A stretch of DNA of 61,036 nt from Gemmatimonadota bacterium (GTDB lineage: Bacteria; Gemmatimonadota; Gemmatimonadetes; Gemmatimonadales; GWC2-71-9). The notes beneath the pieces are model-generated. The model worked only from the letters and a program-made list of their open reading frames with translations. It was not told the DNA's origin and did not search any database. Shown piece after piece: positions 27,227-48,760 of this stretch. The DNA lies in assembly GCA_039587215.1 (NCBI GenBank), contig JBDHIW010000005.1, positions 1 to 61,036 of the forward strand, in the 5' to 3' direction. The translations under genes and the position numbers were made by a program. Numbering within the stretch: the stretch's first letter is position 1; each line of letters begins with the position of its first letter.

Positions 27227-27293
27227 CCGACGCACGACCGGCTCCCTCGCCAAACGGCCGGGAGGCATCTACATTGGAAGGACAACTGAATTC

Positions 27294-27342
27294 GTGGCGA
27301 TTTGCGGCGTATTGCGGCCACGTTAAACAACTCGCTAAAAAG
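27294..27342 (+). promoter_or_regulatory. Candidate H-type pseudoknot riboswitch (SAM-II / SAM-V-like) in the metH leader
   Basis: P1 pairs GUGGC (27294-27298) with GCCAC (27317-27321). Loop UUUGCG (27301-27306) pairs with the 3' CGC(U)AAA (27333-27339). The local sequence GCGAUUU...UUGCGGCCACGUUAAACAACUCGCUAAAAAG resembles my recollection of the SAM-II consensus. It sits in an unusually AT-rich 180-nt gap and is followed by a terminator. Confidence 0.45.
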
Positions 27343-27347
27343 CCCGT

Positions 27348-27379
27348 CCCGGCGTGTCTTTTTGGCAGCCGGGTTTTTT
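27348..27379 (+). terminator. Intrinsic terminator/attenuator hairpin in the metH leader
   Basis: cccggc (27348-27353) pairs with gccggg (27368-27373), followed by tttttt (27374-27379). It lies 28 nt upstream of the metH ATG and upstream of the gggaaggtga RBS. Confidence 0.6.
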
Positions 27380-35705: not shown

Positions 35706-38390
35706 TCAGTTCGGGGGAACGCGCTCGCGCAGTTCCTCGAACCAGTTGTCGACCACCACGATCTGGCCCGACTCGCCCGCGCCGCGGAAGCGGATCATCG
35801 CGAACTGTTCGCCGTCCGGCGTCACATCGTACTGCGGATGGAACGCGTAGTTGTAGTATCCCACGGTCTCGAACAGCACGGTCGATTGGACCACGACGAA
35901 CGAGTCGCCACCCTCGACCTCGGCCGCGATGAACTGGCCGTTGGCATTCTTGTAGAACAGTTCGCGTCCGCTACGTGCCCAGACGGGCTCTGCCCCACCC
36001 GCCGTGGAGACCTGCCATCGGCCGGCGTTCACGTCCGGGAACGGGCGAACGTAGAGCTCCCATCGGCCCGATTCATCGGAAATGTAGGCTAACCACCTTC
36101 CATCCGGCGACAGCGTCGGTGAATGCTCGTTGATGCTGGAGTCGGCGATCAGCGGGACCGCAGTCGTGTCACCATTCGTTCGACGCATTGCGATGTCGAG
36201 AACATTGTTGCGGCCCGTTCGGTATACCAGCCACTCGCCGTCGGGCGAGAGCTCGACCTGGTTCACCGGCTCCGGCAAGTCGAGTACCAGTTCCGCCTGG
36301 CCGACCCCGTCCGCGCGTTTGCGGTACGCATCCCGGGTCTCCCCCCGATCCGAGATGAAGAGCAGCGCCCTCCCGTCCGGCGTCCACCACGGACGGTGGT
36401 CCTGCCCCTGCGGAAAGGTGATGCGAGAGAGCGGGCCCCGATCGAGTTGCTTGACCCACAGGTCGCGGCCTGCGTCGCCGATGATGCCCAGCGCGAGCTG
36501 GGATCCGTCGGGAGAGATCGCCGGAGTGTAAAACTCGCCGGTCCAGTCCGGGTCGATCGGCCGGGCGGCACCGTCGCGATCCACCCACACCATCTCATTG
36601 GGTTCCTCCGTCACGCCGCCCGAGACGTACATCAAGGAGCCCGACGCGGCGAGCGAGAAATCCATGGACCCGAACGCACGCACGCTGACGCCCTCGAGCA
36701 GGGCAACCCCCGGGCCGGTGAGTTCGAGACTGCGCTCGTCGAATGGGGCCGCCAGCACTGAACCGTCCGCGGTCACATAGACCAGATGCCCCGACACCGC
36801 GTACCGCCCCTGCACGCCGCGGACGAGCCGCCGGTGCTCGCCCGTTTCGACGTCGAGCACGGCGACACTGAATTCGTCGACGTCGTTGGCGGTCGCCACC
36901 GTCATCAGAATGCCGCGCCCCGACGGAAGTGCGTGTGGCCAGTTGTGGGCCTGGTCGCCCGCGGCGCTGTCCAGCGTCGAGACGGGTTCGACCTCCCCCC
37001 CAATCGCGGGCACGCGAACGATGACATCCTCCGCTCCCACAACGTAAAAGAATCCATCGCTCGACCAGGTGCCCCCGTCGATCCCGAGTCCACGAGCAGC
37101 GAGCGCGAGCGGCGGGCCACCCGCCAGGGTAATCGTGTGAAGCGTCGCAGGCCCCGGCGTGAAAAACGCAACCGCGTCACCCGTGGGCGAGAAAAACGGA
37201 TGCACGGCGGCATCCGTGCCGGGCAGCGGCCGAGCCGACAGTTGATCGCGCTCACGCACCCACAACTGCACACCCGCCTCACCACGCCCCACGAACACGA
37301 AACGCGATCCGTCGGGCGAGATCGCAAGGCGGCTGGCATACCGCGGGACGATGCCTTCTCCCTCGGGCATCGACAGCCCGTACCGCCGCAGCGGCGCGGC
37401 GTCCGGCCGTGCGGGTCGGAGCCAGCCTGCGACGGCGGCGAGTCCGAGTACCGCAGCGATGGCCGGCCAGCGATACCGCGCGAGCCCCGACGCCGCCGGA
37501 CCCACCGTGGCGGATGGACTCGCCATCGTCGCCACCGTGAAGCCGGGGTTCTTGAGCGCGTCGGCGAACTCGGCCGCCGAGTGAAACCGGTCGGCCGGCA
37601 GTTTGCTCAGCGACTTGGCGATCGCCGCCACGACGTTGCCCGGCACCGTGTCGCGCACCGTGTCGATCACGGGCGCCTTCTCGGTGATCACCTTGGCCAC
37701 GATGGCCTGCGCCGTGCTCCCGGTGTACGGCGGGTCGCCCGCCAGCATCTCGTAGAGCATGGCGCCCAGCGAGTACACGTCGCTCCGCGCATCCAACTCG
37801 CGGTCGCCCATGGCCTGTTCCGGGCTCATGTAGTGCGGCGTTCCGATCGACAGCCCCGTCTCCGTGAGCCGACTGCTGCCCGCGTGACTCACGGCCAGCG
37901 CGATCCCGAAGTCCGCGACGAGTGCCTGCCCGTCGTGCATCAGGATGTTCTCGGGCTTGATATCCCGGTGGATCACGCCCTGTCGATGGGCGTAGTCCAG
38001 GGCCGACGCGACGGCCCGCGCGATCTCCACGCCCTCCTCGATGCCGAGCTGTTTCTCGCGGGCCAACAGGTCGCGCAGCGACTCGCCCTCGACGTACGGC
38101 ATCACATAGAAGAGGAGTTCCGGCCCGCCGTCGCCGCTCACCGTCCCGCTGTCGTGGAGCGGCAGGATGTGCGGGTGCTGCAGGTTGGCCGTGACCTTGA
38201 TCTCATTCAGGAACCGCTCGGCGCCGATTACCGCGGCCAGTTCGGGACGCAGCACCTTGAGCGCGACTTTGCGGTCGTGCTTCACGTCGTGCGCGAGGAA
38301 GACGGTCGCCATCCCACCCTCGCCCAAATGGCGCTCGATGCGATAGCGGTCCGCGAGCGCGGCTCCGATCTGTTCCGTGATGTTGCTCAT
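35706..38390 (-). CDS. Ser/Thr protein kinase with TM segment and C-terminal TolB-like (PD40/WD40-like) beta-propeller
   Basis: ATG 38390 (MSNITEQ...). Kinase motifs GEGGMATVF, VALKVL, HRDIKPENIL, DFGIA, GTPHYMSPEQ. TM segment WPAIAAVLGLAAVAGWL. Six or more blade motifs: ISPDGSRFVF, FSPTGDAVAF, ISPDGSQLAL, WTPDGRALLF, LSPDGEWLVY, LSPDGRWLAY. Confidence 0.9.
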   Translation of the reverse strand: MSNITEQIGAALADRYRIERHLGEGGMATVFLAHDVKHDRKVALKVLRPELAAVIGAERFLNEIKVTANLQHPHILPLHDSGTVSGDGGPELLFYVMPYVEGESLRDLLAREKQLGIEEGVEIARAVASALDYAHRQGVIHRDIKPENILMHDGQALVADFGIALAVSHAGSSRLTETGLSIGTPHYMSPEQAMGDRELDARSDVYSLGAMLYEMLAGDPPYTGSTAQAIVAKVITEKAPVIDTVRDTVPGNVVAAIAKSLSKLPADRFHSAAEFADALKNPGFTVATMASPSATVGPAASGLARYRWPAIAAVLGLAAVAGWLRPARPDAAPLRRYGLSMPEGEGIVPRYASRLAISPDGSRFVFVGRGEAGVQLWVRERDQLSARPLPGTDAAVHPFFSPTGDAVAFFTPGPATLHTITLAGGPPLALAARGLGIDGGTWSSDGFFYVVGAEDVIVRVPAIGGEVEPVSTLDSAAGDQAHNWPHALPSGRGILMTVATANDVDEFSVAVLDVETGEHRRLVRGVQGRYAVSGHLVYVTADGSVLAAPFDERSLELTGPGVALLEGVSVRAFGSMDFSLAASGSLMYVSGGVTEEPNEMVWVDRDGAARPIDPDWTGEFYTPAISPDGSQLALGIIGDAGRDLWVKQLDRGPLSRITFPQGQDHRPWWTPDGRALLFISDRGETRDAYRKRADGVGQAELVLDLPEPVNQVELSPDGEWLVYRTGRNNVLDIAMRRTNGDTTAVPLIADSSINEHSPTLSPDGRWLAYISDESGRWELYVRPFPDVNAGRWQVSTAGGAEPVWARSGRELFYKNANGQFIAAEVEGGDSFVVVQSTVLFETVGYYNYAFHPQYDVTPDGEQFAMIRFRGAGESGQIVVVDNWFEELRERVPPN

Positions 38391-38445
38391 GGCCGCGAAG
38401 TATGCCGCGGCAACGGCGTGTGCGCGAGGGGGAGTACCGCTCCCA

Positions 38446-39755
38446 CTACAGCCGACCCTTCCGCTTGAGTTCCAGGTAGCGATCCACCACCGCCCGGCTC
38501 GCGTCGCGCGGGTGCGCATCGAGCACGACGGCCCCGCTCCGACGCATCTGGGCGAGCGCGGCCTCGCGTTCGTGCAAGAGTTCTTCGGCGGCGGCCTTGC
38601 GGTAGCCGTCCGTCGGCGCCCCGGGCCGCGCCGTAGCCGTCGCGTCCAGCTCGGGATTGCGGAGCGTCACGACGAGCGGCAGATGCCGCGGCCGAAGCGA
38701 GGCGACGTTGGCAACGAGAGCCTCGGACGCCATGCGGTCGATCACGTCGGTGAAGAGCACGGTGAGCGCGCGCTTCCGGTTCCGGACCGCGAGATACCGG
38801 AACGCCGCCGGATAGTCGGACTCCACGAGCGTCGGCTGGGCATCGGCCAGCACGTCCAGCACCTGCCGGAGCCCGCGACGGCCGCGCTGCGGCGCGACGT
38901 AGTGATGCACTTCGTTCGAGAACAGCATGATGCCGACGTTGTCGTCGTGGTGGTTTGCGGCAAATGCAAGCCACAGGGCGGCCCGCACCACGTGCTCCAT
39001 GCGGGACTCGCCTTCGATGTCCGCCGTGAGCAAGCGACCGGCGTCGAGGACGAGGAGGACCTGCTGACGGCGTTCTTCCTCGAACTGCCGCACGATGAGC
39101 TTCCGGCGCCGCGCCGAGGCCTTCCAGTCGAGATGCCGCGGGTCGTCGCCGGGGACGTACGCGCGGAGGCTCTCGAACTGCCGCCCCTCACCGAGCTGCC
39201 GGACCGCTCGGAGGCCCGCCTCCCTGCGGCGCACGGCCTCGGCGATCGATGCCTTGAGGCGCGACGCCGGCATCGCCGGATACACCGTGACCCGCCAGGG
39301 CGCATCGACTCGCCACTGACGTACGCCGAGCCCGAGCGGCCCGCGCGAGCGCACCGCGAGCCACCCTCCCTCCTCGCGACCGCGCGCGTGCGGGGAGACG
39401 GTGACGCGTTCGCGGCAGGACTCCTCGGCGGCGAGCGTGACGTCGCGCGTCGCCTGCACGCCACCCAGCACACCTGGCCGAATCTCCCGCACGGTCAACC
39501 GCGCGCGGCGACCGGTCCGGTTGTGCCAGCGGTAGTGGACCGTGGTCTCGCGACCGACCGCGAAGGCGTTCGGGGCGTCCCGTTCGGTCGCGATCGTCGA
39601 GGCCCCGGGCGCCAACCGCAGATCGAGGGCTACCGCCAGCACCCAGAGCACATCGAGCCCGATGAGGAGATCCAGCGCGCCGCCCCACCACACGCCCAGC
39701 AGGGCCACCGGGGTCACGGCAGCCAGGACGGCGAGCGCCCGTCGCGTGGGCAGTA

Positions 39756-39759
<4 letters not shown>
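38446..39759 (-). CDS. DUF58 domain protein (MoxR-associated, VWA-like fold)
   Basis: GTG start overlaps the MoxR stop (GTGA). Two N-terminal TM segments. DUF58 signature FESLRAYVPGDDPRHLDWKASARRRKLIVRQFEEE. Confidence 0.85.
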
Positions 39760-40709
<950 letters not shown>

Positions 40710-41864
40710 ACGTCCTCCACGGCATGCGCGGCGAGCGCGACACTCTCGGCGTCGCCGCGGTGATCGATCGCGTGACGCAGACGCCGGAACGCGGCATCCG
40801 CATCGGAGGTTCGGCTCGAACGCCCGAGGGCGTCGAGCCACTGCGGATCGGCGTCGGCGCTGGGGCGCGCGGCACCGGCACGCCCCAGTCGGCGCCGGAG
40901 CCCGCCGGCGATGAGCTGCACGGCGGTGGCCGACGCCCCGGACCGTTCGAGTCCGACCGCGAGCGCTTCGAGGTGCTCGAGCGGCGAGCGCCGCCGACGC
41001 TCGACCACGTGAAGCGCCGGACCGAACCGCACTCCGAGGACGAGGAGCGCGAGCAGCCCGACGGCGGCGAGATGCAGCATGGCCCACCCCGGTGGGCGCG
41101 TGAGCATCCACGTCCACGTGGCGCCGACCAGCGACGGTCGCTCCCCGAACCCGTGGTGATACTCGTCGACGCGCAACGTCGTGATGCCCTCGCCGAGGAT
41201 GAGCGGCACCAGTACGCTGCCCGCTTCCGAATCCCGGAGCACGCGATTCGACAGATACGCCGGGTCGGCGATGAGTACCACGCGGCCGCCGCCCTTCACT
41301 TCATCGACGCGCACGACCGGTGCGCTCCGCTCGTTGCGGATCACGGCCGCCGTCTTTCCCCAGGGGATCGCGCTGCACCGCGACCAGACGGACGGCGGCG
41401 CGTCGGCATCCGGCGCGGCGGGCGGTGCGTCCAGCCGCCACCGCGAGTCGGGCAGCCGTTCGTCGGCGATGGCGATGCGCCGGACCCCTTCTTCGACCGG
41501 GGCCCCGAGGCACGCGGTCACCCGCGACGGTCCGGCCACGAGCACCCCGCCGCCCCGCTGGACCCATTCGAGCACTGCCTCGACGCCGCGATCGTCGAGG
41601 TCGTCCGTCAGACCGAGCCCCAGCACCCCGAGCCACGCCCCGGGCTCCGGTTGACCGAGCGTGCGGGGCGTGACCGGGCGCGTCCACCGATCGACGGTCA
41701 CGCCGAAACGCTCCAACGCGTCGGCGAAGCCGGAGGCGCCGTTCGGGCCGAACAGCTCCACCGACAGCCGCGGGTCGCGCAGCTCCGCGGGCGACGCGCG
41801 ACGCCCGGCGATGCTCACGACGGCCAGCACGACCGCGAAGCCTCCGAGCAGGAGCCAGGTCGCG

Positions 41865-42485
41865 CTACGCCGGTCCATGCCCCAGCACCGCGTCGGTGCG
41901 TCGGTCGAACTCGGCGAGGGCGGCGGGGTCGAGCGGTGCGCCACCGAACAGGTGGGCGTACAGCCAGTCGATCGTGTCCCGCAGCGCGCCCTGCCCCGCC
42001 GGACCCAGCTGCGCCTCGTTCGCGTACTCCGCCGGCGTCTTCGACGGATGCGCGCGCAGCACCCGTTTGCCGTCCAGCAGGAAGACCAGTGCCGCGAAGC
42101 GATGGGCGAGCGAGTCCGCGTAGCGTCCCTCGGCCTCGAGCCGCTCCGCCTCGCGGCGGTACCACGCGGCGTCCTTGCGTTCGCGCGCGCGGAGCGCCGG
42201 GGCCATGACGGTCTCGCTCCGCCGCCGGAAGGCGAGGACGGTCAGGTAGCCCACGTGCACCAGAATGCCGACGAGGAGGACGATCAGCCCCGCGACCAGC
42301 GCGTAGTACGCGCCTGGATGGGTCGCTTCGAGCACCGCTAGCCACTCGGCGACGCGCCACCACTGATCCAGAAACCACCGCCAGGGGCTTGGCGGGATGT
42401 CCCACTCGTACCGCGGCGCCGCGAAGACCTCGTCCAGGACCGCGCGGACCGAATCGGCCGCGACCGGCGCCTGCGGAGGGATCAC
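41865..42485 (-). CDS. DUF4129-like membrane protein
   Basis: GTG start overlaps the upstream stop (GTGA). One TM segment (GAYYALVAGLIVLLVGILVHVGYL). C-terminal ...HPSKTPAEYANEA...LYAHLFGG resembles the DUF4129 core. Confidence 0.6.
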   Translation of the reverse strand: MIPPQAPVAADSVRAVLDEVFAAPRYEWDIPPSPWRWFLDQWWRVAEWLAVLEATHPGAYYALVAGLIVLLVGILVHVGYLTVLAFRRRSETVMAPALRARERKDAAWYRREAERLEAEGRYADSLAHRFAALVFLLDGKRVLRAHPSKTPAEYANEAQLGPAGQGALRDTIDWLYAHLFGGAPLDPAALAEFDRRTDAVLGHGPA

Positions 42486-43234
42486 CCCTGGACCTCGAAC
42501 TCGCCGGTCAGTTCACGGTGCAGGTGCTCGAGGTCGAACGCCTCCTTCCGCACCCGCAGATCGTAGTAGTAGAGCGTGAACGCACAGACGATGATCGGAT
42601 AGATGAGCAGGCCAACGACCTGTCCTCCGACGCTGAAGAACGTCTCCAACGACGGGAGCACCGCGGCCAGCACACCGAACGCGATGATCGGCAGGTAAAA
42701 GAGGAAGAACACGATGAACCCGAGGACGAATGCCTTGCCGCGGTAGCCCTTGGTCAGCTCCCACGAACGCCCGATCGACCGCACGCCGCCTTCCTGCTCG
42801 AGGACCACCACCTGGGACACGACCGCCAGCCCGCACAGTACGACGATCCCCGGCACGATGAAGAAGACCAGCCCGACGAGCATGAGGAAGTACTTGAGGA
42901 ACCCGGCCACGAGCAGGGACCACGCCCGGCTGAGCGCGTAGCGCAGTGAATCCCCGAGGTCGGCCTCATGGCCGAGATAGGCCTCCGAGATCACCCACAC
43001 CGTGGCACCCGCGGCGAGGAGACCCCCGATCCCGCCCAGGATGCTTGCCAGGATCACGAGCCCGGGCTCGGCCACGAGCCCGCCCGACAGTCCCGCGTAA
43101 GCGTTGATCACCGTCGGAACGCCCTGCGTCACCACCGCGATCGACACCAGCACCGGAAAGCTCTCGCGGTAGATCGCGATCGCGCCGTCCAGCGTCTCGC
43201 CGATCGACATCGGACGCAGTTCGTATCCCGCCAT
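42482..43234 (-). CDS. Polytopic membrane protein (GPDPase-membrane-domain / DUF975-like)
   Basis: ATG 43234 is preceded by gggaggg. MAGYELRPMSIGETLDGAIAIYRESF... N-terminus, five or six TM segments, and ...YYYDLRVRKEAFDLE... tail, as in the glycerophosphodiester-phosphodiesterase membrane-domain family. Confidence 0.65.
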   Translation of the reverse strand: MAGYELRPMSIGETLDGAIAIYRESFPVLVSIAVVTQGVPTVINAYAGLSGGLVAEPGLVILASILGGIGGLLAAGATVWVISEAYLGHEADLGDSLRYALSRAWSLLVAGFLKYFLMLVGLVFFIVPGIVVLCGLAVVSQVVVLEQEGGVRSIGRSWELTKGYRGKAFVLGFIVFFLFYLPIIAFGVLAAVLPSLETFFSVGGQVVGLLIYPIIVCAFTLYYYDLRVRKEAFDLEHLHRELTGEFEVQG

Positions 43235-43292
43235 GATCCCTCCCTCGTGAGTGATGGCCCGCCGCTGGCTTCGGCGATAAGATGGGACGCAA

Positions 43293-45161
43293 ATGCCCGC
43301 CACGCGAGAGCGCCCACCACAAGCCTTCACGCGACGCATCGCCGTCGAGACGCCCGAGCACGTCGTTCTGCAGTTGGAGCTCGCCGGTCTGGGGTCACGT
43401 GTCGCGGCGGCCCTGCTCGATCTCGTCGTGCAGGTGGGGATTCTGCTGCTGCTCGTCGTGGCAGTGGCCCTGGCCGGGGCGAGCGGGTTTGCCGCGGCCC
43501 TCGGGGACGTGGCGGGGGGGTGGATCAGCGCGCTGCTGGTCGTGGTCTGGTTCGCGATCCTCTGGGGCTACTTCGCCCTGTTCGAGGCCCTCTGGGGTGG
43601 ACGCACGCCGGGCAAACACCGGCTCGGCATCCGCGTGGTCATGGACACGGGACACCCGGTGACCTTCGGCGCGGCGGCGATCCGGAACCTGCTGCGCATC
43701 GCGGACGCACAGCCCTTCAACATGTACCTGGTAGGGCTGCCCTTCCTGTTCTTTCAGCGGCATCACCGCCGCCTTGGCGACCTCGTGGCCGGCACCATCG
43801 TGGTCTACGACCGCCCCGCGGAAGGGGGGCTCGCCGCGGCGGCCGAGGCCGCGCAGGACATCGCTCCGCCCCTCGATCTCGGGCCGCCCCAGCTCTCCGA
43901 CGACGAGTTCCACCTGCTGGACCGCGTGGTGTCGCGGCTCGACGATCTCGACGCGGCGTCGCGGCAACGCCTGCTGCCCCCGGTCCTCGAGCGGCTTTCC
44001 GCCCGAGTCCCGTGGGACGGCCGGCGTCCCGAGGGATTCTTGACCACACTACACACGGACGAACTCGCCCGGCGTCAGGCCCGCAGCGCGACGCGCACGG
44101 GCAGCGACGCCGCGAAAGCATCGAGCTCGGCGCACCGGTTCGTGGCGCTCCGACAAGCCGAGTGGAGCCAGTTCCACCGGGACGCCATGCAGATACAGCG
44201 CGGGCTGGCCGGACTCGGCGGGGACGAGATCATCCAGTTCACCCGACGGTACCGAGCAATCACCGCCGATCTGGCACGCGCCCGCACGTACGGGGTCGAC
44301 CAGCGGACGCTCGAGTACCTCGAGCGAATCGCGAGCGCCGGCCACAACGCAGTCTACGGCCTGCGCGGCGTGCGCCGCGTCCCGCTGGGCCAGCTACTGC
44401 TGCGCGAGCTTCCCCGCGCGGTGTACCGTCAGCGGCGGCTGGTGGCGGCCGCCGCCGCGATCTTCTTCCTGCCCGGTTTCGCCGGCTACACGCTCGTCCG
44501 CGAGCAGCCGGAGCTTGCCACCCAGATCCTGCCCGCCGTCATGATCGAGCGTGCCGAGTCGGGTGCCTACGCCATCGAGACGGGCCGTGGATACGCCGAA
44601 ACCCCGTCACCGTACCTGCCGACGGTGGCGTCGCAGATCGTGGCCAACAACGTCCAGGTCGCGTTCGGAGCGTTCGCGCTCGGGATCGCCGGCGGCGTCG
44701 GCACGGTGGCGGTGCTGGGATTCAACGGCGTGTTTTTCGGTGCGGTCCTCGGTCTGTTCGCCAACTACGGGATCGTCGGGTGGCTGCTCACGTTCGTGGC
44801 CGGACACGGCGTCCTCGAGCTCACCGCGATCTTCGTTGCCGGAGCCGCGGGCCTGCTCGTCGGCTCCGCCATCCTGCTGCCCGGCGACCTCGCGCGGCGC
44901 GACGCGCTCGTAGTGCGCGGCCGGGAGGCCATTCGACTCGTCGGTGCGGCCGCCTCGCTGCTCGTACTGGCCGGCCTCATCGAGGGGTTCCTGTCGGCAA
45001 GCGGCGCACCGACGGCCCTCAAGCTGGGGGTGAGCGCTGCTAGCGCCGTGCTGGTCGCGCTCTACTTCCTCGCGGGGCGTGGCGCACCGGCGGGCGCCGG
45101 TGCGCCGCCGCCGCCGGTCACTCCCGAGGAACGCCGACGCGAACCAGCAGCTTCTCCATGA
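43293..45161 (+). CDS. RDD-domain / SpoIIM-like (DUF95) fusion membrane protein
   Basis: N-terminal RDD domain (AAALLDLVVQ..., WGGRTPGKHRLGIRVV, RRLGDLVAGTIVV). Central helical linker. C-terminal SpoIIM/DUF95-like region (IVANNVQVAFGAFALGIAGGVGTV...GHGVLELTAIFVAGAAGL). Confidence 0.75.
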   Translation: MPATRERPPQAFTRRIAVETPEHVVLQLELAGLGSRVAAALLDLVVQVGILLLLVVAVALAGASGFAAALGDVAGGWISALLVVVWFAILWGYFALFEALWGGRTPGKHRLGIRVVMDTGHPVTFGAAAIRNLLRIADAQPFNMYLVGLPFLFFQRHHRRLGDLVAGTIVVYDRPAEGGLAAAAEAAQDIAPPLDLGPPQLSDDEFHLLDRVVSRLDDLDAASRQRLLPPVLERLSARVPWDGRRPEGFLTTLHTDELARRQARSATRTGSDAAKASSSAHRFVALRQAEWSQFHRDAMQIQRGLAGLGGDEIIQFTRRYRAITADLARARTYGVDQRTLEYLERIASAGHNAVYGLRGVRRVPLGQLLLRELPRAVYRQRRLVAAAAAIFFLPGFAGYTLVREQPELATQILPAVMIERAESGAYAIETGRGYAETPSPYLPTVASQIVANNVQVAFGAFALGIAGGVGTVAVLGFNGVFFGAVLGLFANYGIVGWLLTFVAGHGVLELTAIFVAGAAGLLVGSAILLPGDLARRDALVVRGREAIRLVGAAASLLVLAGLIEGFLSASGAPTALKLGVSAASAVLVALYFLAGRGAPAGAGAPPPPVTPEERRREPAASP

Positions 45162-45309: not shown

Positions 45310-45602
45310 ACGACCTCCTCGGCCGCGGACGCGTAGACGCGCAGTCCCGCGTGTCGGTGTTCAGTGGATTTGAGAGTGGCTAGCCGCTCGATGAGCGGCG
45401 CGCGACAGTCGTCGTCGACCATCACGAGATACAGCGTGTTGGATCCTGGAAACGCCCGGGTGCCGAACTTCTTCCCCGAGCGCCCCTTCCCATGCACCCG
45501 CGGGAACTCCGTATACCCCGGTAGGTCGCACTCGTCGAGGAGCTTCTCGACGTCCGACGCGTGATCCGCGTCGACGAACACCATCATCATCGTTCGCGTC
45601 AT
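45306..45602 (-). CDS. PII-like (GlnB-fold / DUF3240-like) small protein
   Basis: Tail of track ORF 45306..46103. ATG 45602 overlaps the RND stop (ATGA). MMMVFVDADHASDVEKLLDECDLPGYTEFPRVHGKG... has a beta-alpha-beta pattern typical of PII-like proteins found beside RND pumps. Confidence 0.6.
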   Translation of the reverse strand: MTRTMMMVFVDADHASDVEKLLDECDLPGYTEFPRVHGKGRSGKKFGTRAFPGSNTLYLVMVDDDCRAPLIERLATLKSTEHRHAGLRVYASAAEEVV

Positions 45603-48600
45603 CGTTCCATCTCGTAGTAGAGGAGAGGGATGGCCACGAGCGTGAGCGCCGTCGCGACGACCGCGCCGCTGATGAGAGCCATGCCCAGTCCCTGGAAAAT
45701 GGGATCGCGCACCATGACCAACCCGCCGATCACGACCGCCAGGGCGGTCAGGATGATGGGACGCGACCGAATCAGTCCGGACGCCACGACGGCCCGCCGT
45801 AGCGGCTCTCCGCGATCGAGTCCGAGCTGGATGAAGTCGACCAACAGGATCGAATTCCGGACGATGATGCCGGCCAGGGCGATCATCCCGATCATTGACG
45901 TCGCGGTGAAGAACGCGCCCGTCGCGGCATGCGCGGGCAGGATGCCGATGAGCGTCAGCGGGATCGGCGCCATGATCACGAGCGGGATCGTGAAGGACTG
46001 GAACCACGCCACGACGAGCACGTAGATCAGCACGAGCACGGCCGCGAACGCGATACCGAGATCGCGGAAGACGTCGCGGGTGACGTCCCACTCGCCGTCC
46101 CACACGACGAACGGCTCTTCGGTGAGCGTCGGCCCTTTGCCCCAGTGGACCGCGTTGTCACCCACCGCCTCCCGGAGCCCGTCTTCCATCTCGAGCATCG
46201 CGTACACCGGGCTCTCGAGTCGTCCGGCGACGTCCCCCGTGACATACACCACGGGCATCAGGTTCTTGTGGAAGATCGGCGTCGACGACTCCACCGTCTC
46301 GAACGCCGCGAGCGTGCCCAGCCGCCGGGCGCCGAGTGCCGTCGCAATCGGCATGGCCGCCAGCTCCGCCACCGACCCCATCAGCGAGTCCGGAAGCTGC
46401 ACGCGGATCGCCACCGCCTCCGCCGCCTGCTCGTCATGCAGGAGGCCCACGGCCGCGCCGTTCATGGACGCGGCGATCGTACGGGCCACGTCGTGCGGAT
46501 TGGTAGTGGCATACGCCGCCTCGGTCGGCGCCACCGACGCGCGGAGCTGGGCGTGCGACGCTTCGACGGACCAATCGACGTCGACCACGCCGTCCGTCGC
46601 AACAAAGACCTCGCGCACGCGCTCGGCCGCGGCGATCTGCGTCTCGTAGTCGGGCCCGTAGACCTCGGCCACCAGCGTCGCGTACACGGGCGGCCCCGGC
46701 GGAATCTCCGCCAGCTTCACCGCGGCTCCGAAGGCCGATGCGATCGAATCCACGACCGGGCGCATCCGCAGCGCAACATCGTGGCTCTGGTCGTCGCGGT
46801 GATGCTTGGCCACGAGGTTGACTTGCACGTCGGCCACAGTGGGACCGCGCCGAAGGAAGTAGTGGCGCACCAGCCCGTTGAAGTTGAAAGGTGCTGCGAC
46901 GCCCGCATACGTCTGGATATCCCGGACATCGGGATCGCGCGCCACGGCGAGCGCCAGCGCCTGCGCGACCTCCGCGGTGCGCTCCAACGTCGTCCCCTCC
47001 GGCATGTCGACGATCAACTGGAACTCACTCTTGTTGTCGAACGGCAGCATCTTCACCGTCACGAGCTTGGCGGGAAGCAGCACCACGGCGCCGAGCAGCA
47101 GCACGACCATCGCGCCGTACGCCATCACCCGTCGGCGCGTGCCGTCAAGCAGCCACTCGAGCATGCGCCGATACCAGGTCGCGAGCGCGCCGGTGGGAAG
47201 CGGTTCCGATGTCGACACCTCGACCTCGGTTGCGGGCGCGTGCCCCTTGACCAAGCGAATCGCCAGGTACGGCGTCACGATGAACGCCACCGCGAGGGAG
47301 AACAGCATCGCCACGGACGCTCCGACGGGGATCGGCTGCATGTACGGGCCCATCAGTCCGGACACGAACGCCATGGGCAGAATCGCGGCAATGACGGTGA
47401 AGGTCGCGAGGATCGTCGGATTCCCCACCTCGTCGACCGCGACCACCGCGGCTTCGTCCGGACTCCGCTGCCGCAATCCCAGATGGCGGGCGATGTTCTC
47501 GACGACGACGATCGCGTCGTCGACGAGGATACCGATCGCGAACACGAGCGCGAACAGGGTGATGCGGTTGAGCGTATATCCGTACAGGCGGTACACCAGC
47601 AGCGTCAGCGCGAGGGTGACGGGGACCGCCACCAGCACCACGACCGCCTCGCGCCATCCGAGCGCCCACCACACCAGCAGCACGACGCCGACCGTCGCGA
47701 CCAGAATGTGGAACAGGAGCTCCTGCGACTTCTCCGTGGCGGTTTCGCCATAGTCGCGCGTCACCGTCACCTGCACGTCCTCCGCGATCACTGCGCCGGT
47801 GAGATCGTCGACCCGAGCCATCACCTGGTGGGCGATGGTGGCGGCGTTGGTGCCCTCGCGCTTGGCAATCGCGACCGTCACGGCCGGCGTGAACGCGCTC
47901 CCCGCCGCACCGCCTGGCAGGAAGCTGACGTAGCTCTGGGGCTCGGCGGGACCGTCGGCCACGGTCGCGACGTCGCGCAACAGCACCGGGCGACCGGCCA
48001 CGACGCCCACAACGACGGTCTCCACCTGCTCCACCCGGCGCAGCAACCCACCCACCCGCACGGGCACGGTACGCTGCTGCATGAGGAGTTCGCCTGCCGG
48101 CAGCTCCGTGTTGGCCACACCCAACGCCTGCATCACGACGGCCGCCGACAGGCCGCGTGCCGAGAGCGCCTGGGGATCGAGTGTCACCGCGACTTCGCGG
48201 GGCGCGCCGCCGATGACCCACGTCTCCGCCACGTCCGGGATCCGCTTGAGTTCCGTGGCCAGTTCGGCCGCCTGCTGGCGCAGCAGGTAGCCGTCACCGA
48301 GATCGGCCCCGCCCGACAGCGTGATCGTGAGGATGGGGACCTCGTTGATCCCGTGCAGCGTGATCAGCGGCGGGGTCGCCCCGGGCGGGGTCTTGTCGGC
48401 GTTCGCCAGCAGTTTGCCGTAGAGGCGCGCCAACGCCATCTCGGGTTCCGTGCCCACATCGTAGCGCGCCGTGATCAATGCGCCGTCACTCTGGGCCACG
48501 CTGTAGACATAGTCGACCGACGGAATCTCCCAGATCATCCGCTCGAGCGGCTCGACGATGCGGCGCTCCACTTCGCTCGGCGTAGCGCCCGGCAACCCGA

Positions 48601-48760
48601 CCGCAACGTCGATCATCGGTACGCGGATCTGGGGCTCCTCTTCGCGCGGGGTGGTGAGCAGGCCGCCGATGCCCGCCACCATCGAAGCCCCCACGAGCAA
48701 TGGGGTCAGCTTCGAGTTCAGGAAGCGCTGCGCGATCGCGCCGGAGAACCCCGTCTTCAC
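45599..48760 (-). CDS. Efflux RND transporter permease (AcrB/CzcA superfamily)
   Basis: 1053 aa with 12-TM/two-large-loop architecture. N-terminal FLNSKLTPLLVGASMVAGIGG and FALVFAIGILVDDAIVVVENI motifs. GTG start overlaps the adaptor stop (GTGA). Confidence 0.9.
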   Translation of the reverse strand: MKTGFSGAIAQRFLNSKLTPLLVGASMVAGIGGLLTTPREEEPQIRVPMIDVAVGLPGATPSEVERRIVEPLERMIWEIPSVDYVYSVAQSDGALITARYDVGTEPEMALARLYGKLLANADKTPPGATPPLITLHGINEVPILTITLSGGADLGDGYLLRQQAAELATELKRIPDVAETWVIGGAPREVAVTLDPQALSARGLSAAVVMQALGVANTELPAGELLMQQRTVPVRVGGLLRRVEQVETVVVGVVAGRPVLLRDVATVADGPAEPQSYVSFLPGGAAGSAFTPAVTVAIAKREGTNAATIAHQVMARVDDLTGAVIAEDVQVTVTRDYGETATEKSQELLFHILVATVGVVLLVWWALGWREAVVVLVAVPVTLALTLLVYRLYGYTLNRITLFALVFAIGILVDDAIVVVENIARHLGLRQRSPDEAAVVAVDEVGNPTILATFTVIAAILPMAFVSGLMGPYMQPIPVGASVAMLFSLAVAFIVTPYLAIRLVKGHAPATEVEVSTSEPLPTGALATWYRRMLEWLLDGTRRRVMAYGAMVVLLLGAVVLLPAKLVTVKMLPFDNKSEFQLIVDMPEGTTLERTAEVAQALALAVARDPDVRDIQTYAGVAAPFNFNGLVRHYFLRRGPTVADVQVNLVAKHHRDDQSHDVALRMRPVVDSIASAFGAAVKLAEIPPGPPVYATLVAEVYGPDYETQIAAAERVREVFVATDGVVDVDWSVEASHAQLRASVAPTEAAYATTNPHDVARTIAASMNGAAVGLLHDEQAAEAVAIRVQLPDSLMGSVAELAAMPIATALGARRLGTLAAFETVESSTPIFHKNLMPVVYVTGDVAGRLESPVYAMLEMEDGLREAVGDNAVHWGKGPTLTEEPFVVWDGEWDVTRDVFRDLGIAFAAVLVLIYVLVVAWFQSFTIPLVIMAPIPLTLIGILPAHAATGAFFTATSMIGMIALAGIIVRNSILLVDFIQLGLDRGEPLRRAVVASGLIRSRPIILTALAVVIGGLVMVRDPIFQGLGMALISGAVVATALTLVAIPLLYYEMER

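Follow-up and report, generated by a model that had tools for sequence, protein, structure and literature searches.

A conserved MoxR–DUF58 gene set with five membrane-protein partners in Gemmatimonadota and other bacteria

MoxR–DUF58 pairs are among the commonest AAA+ modules of bacteria, and their client is mostly unknown. One such pair lies among membrane-protein genes at positions 35,706 to 45,161 of a 61,036-nucleotide stretch of contig JBDHIW010000005.1 (GenBank assembly GCA_039587215.1), from a bacterium of the Gemmatimonadota, order Gemmatimonadales. Homologues of its genes place the contig in this order and not among the Actinobacteria. The whole stretch is called the window here, and all coordinates are counted from its first letter. 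The locus raises the question of whether these genes form one system and, if so, what that system might do. An earlier note, made from the sequence alone, had proposed a conserved system of no known function. The analysis described here gives good support to a conserved unit of seven protein families, in which MoxR and DUF58 are joined by a fixed set of five membrane partners.

Layout and conservation of the locus

The operon runs on the minus strand. Its first gene (42482..43234) encodes a 250-residue polytopic membrane protein of the YciC/UPF0259–DUF975–GPDPase_memb superfamily, hereafter the YciC-like protein, and is followed by genes for a bitopic DUF4129 protein (41865..42485, 206 residues; PF13559), a DUF4350 protein (40670..41878, 402 residues; PF14258), a cytoplasmic MoxR AAA+ ATPase (39756..40709, 317 residues; AAA_3) and a DUF58 protein (38446..39759, 437 residues; PF01882 and VWA_2). 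An accessory Hanks-type Ser/Thr kinase with a PD40/TolB-like propeller (35706..38390; Pkinase and PD40) trails on the same strand. On the plus strand lies the gene for a 622-residue protein, recognised by Pfam, in which an RDD domain, a cytoplasmic helical linker and a SpoIIM-like domain are fused (43293..45161).

By direct reading of the sequence, the YciC-like and DUF4129 genes meet in a GTGA at 42485/42482, the DUF4129 and DUF4350 genes overlap by 14 nt at 41878/41865, the DUF4350 and MoxR genes overlap by 40 nt at 40709/40670, and the MoxR/DUF58 junction is again a GTGA, at 39759/39756; 55 nt separate the DUF58 gene from the kinase gene. These overlaps and gaps, like the coordinates and start codons of all seven open reading frames (ORFs), were as the earlier note gave them, and Pfam bore out all of its domain assignments. 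Its further statement that every component except MoxR is membrane-anchored was upheld by hydropathy for the other components, while the kinase segment scored only weakly. The transmembrane (TM) segments counted in this way are two each in the DUF58 and DUF4350 proteins, one in the DUF4129 protein, five or six in the YciC-like protein, at least eight in the RDD–SpoIIM fusion and none in MoxR.

The start codons of the YciC-like and RDD–SpoIIM genes are separated by a divergent intergenic spacer of 58 nt (43235..43292), which contains GAGGGAGGG upstream of the ATG of the YciC-like gene. A promoter scan found no sigma-70-like site in this spacer, and a scan for promoters and terminators gave nothing usable between the genes of the module. 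The corresponding gap measures 31–47 nt (interquartile range) in 70 relatives. As the gap is short and no sigma-70-like promoter was found in it, leaderless transcripts or promoters inside the coding regions are suggested.

Conservation close to the window was examined with a DUF4350 alignment as the query and one genome per species. Of the 435 relatives found, the best 80 loci were analysed, and all 80 belong to Gemmatimonadota. Within the Gemmatimonadales the module is complete and in the window's order in 55 of the 56 loci that could be evaluated upstream and in all 65 that could be evaluated downstream, at DUF4350 identities as low as 34% among these complete loci. The projected junction lengths in these relatives have medians of −5, −14, −40 and −4 nt (14 to 57 usable loci per junction). 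Since the same medians recur in Gemmatimonadales relatives, the arrangement of overlaps is not due to chance.

Three further scans, seeded with diverse DUF58 representatives, yielded 238 loci, which were scanned with hidden Markov models (HMMs) built from the Gemmatimonadota proteins, so that divergent members may be missed. Judged by record titles, the four-gene core DUF4129–DUF4350–MoxR–DUF58 recurs in about 14 lineages, and in most of them it is accompanied by YciC-like, RDD and SpoIIM-like proteins, the last bearing the helical linker domain at its N-terminus. All eight domains were found around an orthologous DUF58 gene in Chloroflexota, Cyanobacteriota, Armatimonadota, Planctomycetota and Desulfobacterota/delta, and likewise in Bacteroidota (locus L155), Binatota (L217), Acetothermia (L280) and Actinomycetota (L238, L291 and L298). 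One or two parts went undetected in Acidobacteriota, Myxococcota, Riflebacteria (L137) and Ca. Zipacnadia. The lineages include both monoderms and diderms. The proposal that the system is conserved is thus borne out, over a wider range than assumed, as is the note's statement that such genes recur around moxR in Actinobacteria, for which the three Actinomycetota loci are joined by Rv3689–Rv3695 of Mycobacterium tuberculosis by annotation.

Gene order varies across these lineages while the linkage persists, with divergent, convergent and co-directional arrangements all represented. In other phyla SpoIIM and RDD are mostly found downstream of DUF58 and diverge from each other. The seven genes all point the same way in L150, L212 and L235; those of L217 share one strand, RDD and SpoIIM coming after DUF58; and Cyanobacteriota have the YciC-like gene placed between SpoIIM and RDD. 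Clustering of the flanking ORFs returned only generic families, and no eighth linked family or common cargo gene emerged from it. Genes inserted between MoxR and DUF58 in some lineages were considered as cargo and rejected as heterogeneous: they include P450, outer-membrane β-barrel, redoxin, MauE, methyltransferase, tricorn protease and NUDIX genes.

The RDD–SpoIIM fusion is limited to Gemmatimonadota, and the two are separate genes elsewhere. RDD, linker and SpoIIM share one ORF in 30 loci, 29 titled Gemmatimonadota and one unclassified, whereas linker and SpoIIM form a gene of their own in 81 loci, with RDD separate where it was found; all but one of these 81 are titled as other lineages or are unlabelled. 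Uniterated RDD and SpoIIM HMMs served for counting across phyla, iteration with fused sequences having contaminated the labels. The fusion gene is upstream of the operon and divergent from it in Gemmatimonadales, and downstream and convergent in Gemmatimonadaceae. As it stands at two positions relative to the operon, its linkage must have survived rearrangement.

Other apparent single-ORF fusions were also seen (L099 3517-5376; L116 5481-7610; L235 6016-8832; L187 99-2438), joining YciC-like to DUF4129 (two loci), DUF4129 to DUF4350, and DUF4350 to MoxR; these could be real, or could be assembly or frameshift artefacts. In addition, the RDD domain of the window (residues 33-173, 43389-43811) matches the C-terminal part of one PADLOC PD-T4-6 kinase model (337-473 of 476; 3.5e-05), which indicates that kinase–RDD fusion proteins exist elsewhere.

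Domain content and topology of the proteins

The MoxR protein is a predicted ATPase of the MRP-type AAA_3 group. Its Pfam matches, AAA_3 (1.3e-60, 203.4 bits) and AAA_lid_2 (2.5e-23, 82 bits), both exceed the Pfam cut-offs, and it matches the solved MoxR structure 2r44 at 3.9e-73, with residues 9-315 aligned to residues 18-329 of 2r44. This alignment covers the N-terminal helix encoded within the 40-nt overlap with DUF4350, and so supports the long start predicted for MoxR. Walker A (GVPGTAKT at residue 44), Walker B (LLADEINRA at 103) and sensor 1 (ATQNP at 145) are intact, and the Walker and sensor motifs are kept in 102 orthologues.

The DUF58 gene lies directly 3′ of moxR, and its product matches PF01882 at 8e-33 (113.9 bits, above the cut-off) and VWA_2 at 1.4e-4. 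Hydropathy places an N-terminal hairpin of two TM segments (7-51) ahead of a 386-residue cytoplasmic body containing the VWA-like domain. The canonical metal ion-dependent adhesion site (MIDAS), DxSxS...T...D as defined in PMC7159879, does not occur here, both Ser residues being replaced. The domain does retain the strand-1 Asp, in LDAGR at residue 238 (the window reads L-D-A-G-R-L-L), and the FTD motif at strand 4 (residue 336). D-A-G-R-x-(L/M) in place of DxSxS is a signature of the whole DUF58 orthologue group, with D239, G241 and R242 at least 93% conserved across 153 orthologues carrying 16 taxon labels. At E < 1e-30 there were 1,514 cluster representatives, and most of the 150 listed are full length, at about 436 residues; Arg-rich representatives once taken as actinobacterial were rejected as such and proved to be from Gemmatimonadaceae. 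A sequence-profile search of the PDB with DUF58 gave no match, and a low-stringency Pfam scan of its N-terminal part added nothing.

The DUF4350 protein (PF14258, 1.3e-9) is predicted by hydropathy to consist of a TM anchor, a 233-residue ectodomain, a second TM segment and a 109-residue cytoplasmic tail. Its invariant residues are concentrated in this tail (RRRSPLEH...), which is the most conserved part of the protein and to which a low-stringency Pfam scan added nothing. The ectodomain has a weak profile match to the GIFT domain of IFT52 (E 0.29, PDB profile search), in agreement with the relationship between DUF4350 and GldG that has been reported by HHpred (PMC5898192). A tblastn search of plasmids with the DUF4350 protein found no match.

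The DUF4129 protein (PF13559, 2.5e-8) is predicted to be N-out/C-in, with a short outer N-terminus, one TM segment and a cytoplasmic DUF4129 domain. Its orthologues from other phyla differ in carrying a signal peptide and, at the N-terminus, a long ectodomain. No relative of DUF4129 was found by a PDB sequence-profile search. Between the DUF4350 tail (40673-40999, minus strand) and the DUF4129 domain (41868-42230, minus strand) there is a weak profile–profile similarity over 90 columns (probability 29%, P 5.7e-4); the two may be distant homologues, a weak lead.

The YciC-like protein has a weak UPF0259/YciC Pfam match (1.6e-4), and its homologues carry PF06790, PF25231, PF06161 or PF10110. Its AlphaFold2 (AF2) model is all-helical, with a predicted local distance difference test score (pLDDT) of 91.5. 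Foldseek found no significant fold match for this model in the PDB (E > 0.5, TM-score of 0.44 or less), the best of the non-significant matches being a choline-transporter-like protein and the CysZ sulfate permease. Over 12 taxon labels, conservation is seen at residues E146 and R156 and in a C-terminal motif, Y223-D225-E231.

In the RDD–SpoIIM fusion, Pfam recognises SpoIIM (PF01944) at 2.3e-28 (99.6 bits) and RDD at 7.9e-19. The RDD domain is encoded at about 43380-43793, the linker at about 43848-44447 and the SpoIIM domain at about 44454-44996, all on the plus strand. Hydropathy and topology analysis gives a 281-residue loop rich in Lys and Arg, and a low-stringency Pfam scan of the linker added nothing. 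The AF2 model (pLDDT 82.5, predicted template modelling score 0.70) had no significant Foldseek match among solved structures. Six residues of the SpoIIM domain (N453, H505, E509, R535, E564 and S568) show at least 93% conservation over 15 taxon labels, and the AF2 model puts the helices that bear them in its transmembrane part; RDD and YciC-like proteins likewise have conserved charged residues. Overall, PDB lookups found solved relatives for none of five of the seven module proteins.

A possible membrane complex and its alternatives

Full-text literature searches found no experimental characterisation of the module, in keeping with the earlier statement that no function had been assigned to it. 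Among its closest counterparts is the mycobacterial MoxR2 region. In a published table, Rv3689–Rv3695 of M. tuberculosis and their M. chelonae orthologues are annotated as members of the same families, namely a membrane protein (Rv3689), DUF4350 (Rv3691), MoxR (Rv3692), DUF58 (Rv3693), SpoIIM (Rv3694c) and RDD (Rv3695) (PMC8191103). SpoIIM and RDD are oppositely oriented there, as in most of the non-Gemmatimonadota loci found here, and they are separate genes in M. tuberculosis, M. chelonae and M. abscessus, whereas in the window they are fused. The mycobacterial cluster adjoins glpK/glpF. Some weak hints come from this cluster: Rv3694c and Rv3695 co-purified with the divisome-associated Rv0954, alongside PbpA and LamA (PMC8093794), Rv3691 is required for slow growth of BCG, and Rv3690 was mutated in one D-cycloserine-resistant mutant. 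In M. chelonae the whole cluster was strongly down-regulated along with about 15 neighbours (PMC8191103); this may be a deletion or regional effect and was not counted as co-regulation.

Makarova et al. (2015) predicted a secretion or membrane-remodelling complex for an archaeal DUF4350–MoxR–vWA neighbourhood (arCOG01314), and pointed out that bacterial SpoIIM homologues adjoin vWA and COG0714 genes (PMC5898192). The window has the same combination of a bitopic DUF4350 protein with a GldG-like ectodomain, a COG0714 MoxR and a vWA protein. The archaeal partners are Ig-like/S-layer-type membrane proteins (arCOG02884 and others), and DUF4129, RDD and YciC-like subunits are not described for that complex, which is a prediction only (PMC5898192). 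Ig-like or S-layer partners were found neither among the window genes nor among the families linked across phyla, Big_2 being present only in one Gemmatimonadales subclade.

The Bat (Bacteroides aerotolerance) operon and mycobacterial moxR1 (Rv1479–Rv1481) also have DUF58 directly after MoxR. However, those operons continue with membrane VWA (BatA/BatB) and TPR (BatC/BatE) proteins, which Pfam does not find among the seven window proteins, and the DUF58 protein of the window falls into a separate orthologue group, marked by D-A-G-R instead of DxSxS. The Pfam SpoIIM domain of the window fusion also occurs in SpoIIM of Bacillus subtilis, a polytopic protein of the SpoIID/M/P engulfment machinery that acts as a scaffold for the recruitment of envelope hydrolases (summary in PMC5898192). 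The fusion differs from the B. subtilis protein in its extra cytoplasmic helical domain and its fused RDD, and the host is no spore former; SpoIID and SpoIIP genes were found neither among the module genes nor in their immediate flanks, the region covered. DUF4129 also forms the C-terminal domain of TgpA-like transglutaminases, whose genes likewise adjoin those for MoxR and DUF58. This suggests DUF4129 as a common docking element for that pair; TgpA-type operons have a transglutaminase core that is missing from the window, where DUF4129 is carried by a small bitopic protein.

The reading preferred here, held at about an even chance, is that the locus encodes one MoxR/DUF58-driven inner-membrane complex facing the cell envelope, with a remodelling or assembly function suggested by domain content, topology and analogy. 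The remodelling or insertion machine envisaged in the earlier note is likewise a suggestion from domain content and topology. The complex would comprise seven conserved proteins, present as six polypeptides in the window because RDD and SpoIIM are fused. This fusion and the persistence of linkage through rearrangement speak for a single physical complex. Topology assigns the DUF58 body, the DUF4129 domain and the DUF4350 tail to the cytoplasmic side, the same side as MoxR. A MoxR hexamer would be held at the membrane by the two-TM DUF58 adaptor, and the two would engage the cytoplasmic parts of the bitopic proteins, that is the DUF4129 domain and the RRRSPLEH tail of DUF4350. ATP hydrolysis might then remodel the bitopic proteins or assemble them with the polytopic SpoIIM-like, RDD and YciC-like subunits, and thereby control the state of a platform that faces the envelope and includes the GIFT/GldG-like ectodomain. 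The output would lie in the cell envelope and in no cytoplasmic process, possibly as the positioning or activation of envelope-remodelling factors or the export of an envelope component.

Several points weigh against this reading. At many loci of Armatimonadota, Chloroflexota and Acidobacteriota the orthologous DUF58 gene lacks the partner genes, and the four-gene core was present in eight of 14 evaluable loci in Chloroflexota, six of 12 in Cyanobacteriota, four of 12 in Acidobacteriota and one of six in Armatimonadota; since it is missing at so many DUF58 loci, operon linkage is not obligatory. The HMM scan detected no RDD gene beside the module in Acidobacteriota. Moreover, the taxon labels are the titles of metagenome-assembled genome records, some of which may be mis-binned. 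Topology is the ground for assuming that DUF58/MoxR docks on two cytoplasmic regions, the DUF4129 domain and the tail of DUF4350, and the profile similarity between these regions is weak. Finally, the flanking-ORF analyses found no envelope enzyme linked to the module, so that the envelope output is argued from the analogy with SpoIIM and GldG.

The system is a variant of the known MoxR–VWA kind, uncharacterised as a whole. More tentatively, the seven proteins may be a previously unrecognised and widespread AAA+-powered machine of the cytoplasmic membrane, extending from Gemmatimonadota to mycobacteria, in which a MIDAS-less DUF58 couples MoxR to a SpoIIM/RDD/YciC-like core and a GIFT ectodomain, with a function unlike that of any known system for secretion, insertion, division or transport; we regard this wider proposal as possible, though doubtful. 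The module offers a defined candidate client complex for MoxR–DUF58, including, by annotation, in M. tuberculosis. The Gemmatimonadota fusion is direct genomic evidence that non-sporulation SpoIIM homologues work with RDD proteins, and is a natural single chain of two subunits that would be handy for expression and structural work. A function, once assigned, would annotate the DUF58 subgroup, DUF4350, DUF4129, RDD and YciC-like families together.

Two alternatives are unlikely to a similar degree. Following the archaeal proposal of Makarova et al., the module might be a novel apparatus for protein secretion or surface assembly, with a polytopic conduit, a GIFT periplasmic adaptor and a MoxR motor. 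That proposal relates DUF4350 to GldG of a gliding- and type 9 secretion system-associated ABC transporter (PMC5898192), and the weak IFT52/GIFT match of the window protein fits with it, as do three polytopic membrane proteins with conserved polar intramembrane residues. However, the flank analyses linked no conserved secreted cargo, S-layer or Ig-like partner to the module in bacteria, monoderms and diderms alike have it without an outer-membrane component, and neither polytopic AF2 model matches a solved translocon or transporter. Alternatively, RDD, SpoIIM-like or YciC-like might itself transport an ion or small solute, or serve membrane homeostasis, with MoxR/DUF58 only assembling or gating it. 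The charged and polar residues conserved inside the SpoIIM and RDD membrane domains would suit such a transporter, one Halobacillus RDD protein is reportedly a Na+/H+ antiporter, and the best fold matches of the YciC-like protein are themselves transporters; those matches fall short of significance, though, and transport gives no role to two bitopic proteins with large ectodomains and finds no solute-binding or energy-coupling partner besides MoxR.

The remaining explanations are less probable. That there is no single system, a generic MoxR–DUF58 pair having come by chance to lie beside unrelated membrane-protein genes, is disfavoured: about 14 lineages have the same six partners in spite of reordering, the start/stop overlaps are conserved, RDD and SpoIIM are fused, and the DUF58 orthologue group has a D-A-G-R signature of its own. 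These observations outlast the facts that MoxR–DUF58 pairs occur in many other contexts (PMC12067865) and that many genomes have the orthologous DUF58 with none of the other genes nearby. A shade less probable is maturation of a specific membrane enzyme, by metal or cofactor insertion or by activation, on the model of NorQ/NorD, CoxD/CoxE or RavA/ViaA. This is the best-documented role of MoxR–VWA pairs (summarised in PMC7159879), and a few Acidobacteriota loci have insertions of redox-type genes (redoxin, MauE/DoxX, TauE), but the flank analyses revealed no candidate client enzyme conserved in the neighbourhood, and the MIDAS serines are lost throughout the DUF58 orthologue group. Least probable is a phage-defence or conflict system of the MoxR–vWA ternary type, in which a third core component (VMAP, iSTAND, FtsH-type or β-propeller) is combined with variable effectors (Kaur et al. 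2020, PMC7159879). The bpMoxR model PF20030 does match MoxR at 3e-8, yet AAA_3 fits this protein much better (203 against 33 bits); a propeller-bearing protein does lie next door, yet this only propeller is periplasmic and on the non-conserved kinase, which matches PADLOC kinase models as any Hanks kinase would. Pfam finds no VMAP, iSTAND, FtsH or effector component in the conserved genes. At 1e-3, PADLOC gives no match for the DUF58, DUF4350, DUF4129 or YciC-like proteins, and its matches to the core are marginal, namely MoxR to mad8 (8.1e-05, 20 bits) and the RDD-like stretch of one kinase model. In addition, the module is vertically conserved and of fixed rather than variable content.

The trailing kinase and neighbouring genes

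The kinase (Pkinase 1.1e-47, PD40 2.9e-26) has its HRD and DFG motifs, and matches the TolB propeller model TIGR02800 at 1.4e-27, under that model's cut-off. On the minus strand, its kinase domain is encoded at about 38342-37584, a putative TM segment at about 37469-37419 and the periplasmic propeller at about 37373-35709; the putative TM segment is a single, weakly scoring Ala/Gly-rich stretch (residues 308-324). The earlier note had counted this protein as part of the conserved system, which is not borne out: of the 80 Gemmatimonadales loci, L004 alone resembles the window in having a PD40-propeller kinase immediately after DUF58, and such a kinase is absent from L001 and L003, two of the three nearest relatives. 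The PD40-propeller kinase is a putative regulatory add-on limited to the order Gemmatimonadales, and no core subunit. A same-strand kinase does lie within 3 kb in 29 of 52 evaluable Gemmatimonadales loci (0.027 expected from the flanks), an excess that is mostly one inherited arrangement. Outside Gemmatimonadales no consistent kinase neighbour of the module was found, so that the suggested kinase control fails as a general feature and stands at most as a lineage-specific addition.

There is a precedent for such control in the PFNA cluster of Bifidobacterium, which encodes the Ser/Thr kinase Pkb2, FN3, MoxR, DUF58 and a transglutaminase; phosphorylation of its MoxR ATPase by the kinase has been reported (PMC12067865). 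Both settings link MoxR and DUF58 to a kinase and to Ig/FN3-like domains, as DUF58–Big_2–kinase in Gemmatimonadales or, in the window, as DUF58–kinase. The window lacks the FN3 and transglutaminase of the PFNA cluster, the latter lacks DUF4350, RDD, SpoIIM and YciC-like proteins, and the kinases are not orthologous.

In one Gemmatimonadales subclade (L017 13449-18364 and 26 similar loci), DUF58 is followed by genes for Big_2, a Zn-ribbon–Ser/Thr kinase–PEGA protein and two unknown ORFs. The genes after DUF58 in these 27 loci are tightly coupled, being separated or overlapping by a few nt. In L048 a 509-residue kinase, equal in length to the Zn-ribbon–kinase–PEGA protein, comes directly after DUF58.

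One Gemmatimonadales subclade has, a few kb past RDD–SpoIIM, genes for a peptidase M50 (25 loci) and a YceG/MltG-like protein (16 loci); these envelope-related neighbours (for example L017 4629-5954 and 1951-3156) are absent from the window. Of the genes inserted between MoxR and DUF58, the NUDIX hydrolase gene recurs, in L244 (9462-10007) and 16 similar loci, from Blastocatellia apart from one locus titled Firmicutes, and a DivIC-like septum-formation gene lies upstream in 10 loci. In the window itself, an AcrB/RND efflux pump gene (45599-48760, minus strand; ACR_tran 2.6e-146) converges on the 3′ end of RDD–SpoIIM and lies outside the conserved module. Farther away, at 27284-27359 on the plus strand, there is a match to the SAM-II riboswitch (SAM_alpha, RF00521) at 55 bits, against a gathering score of 36.

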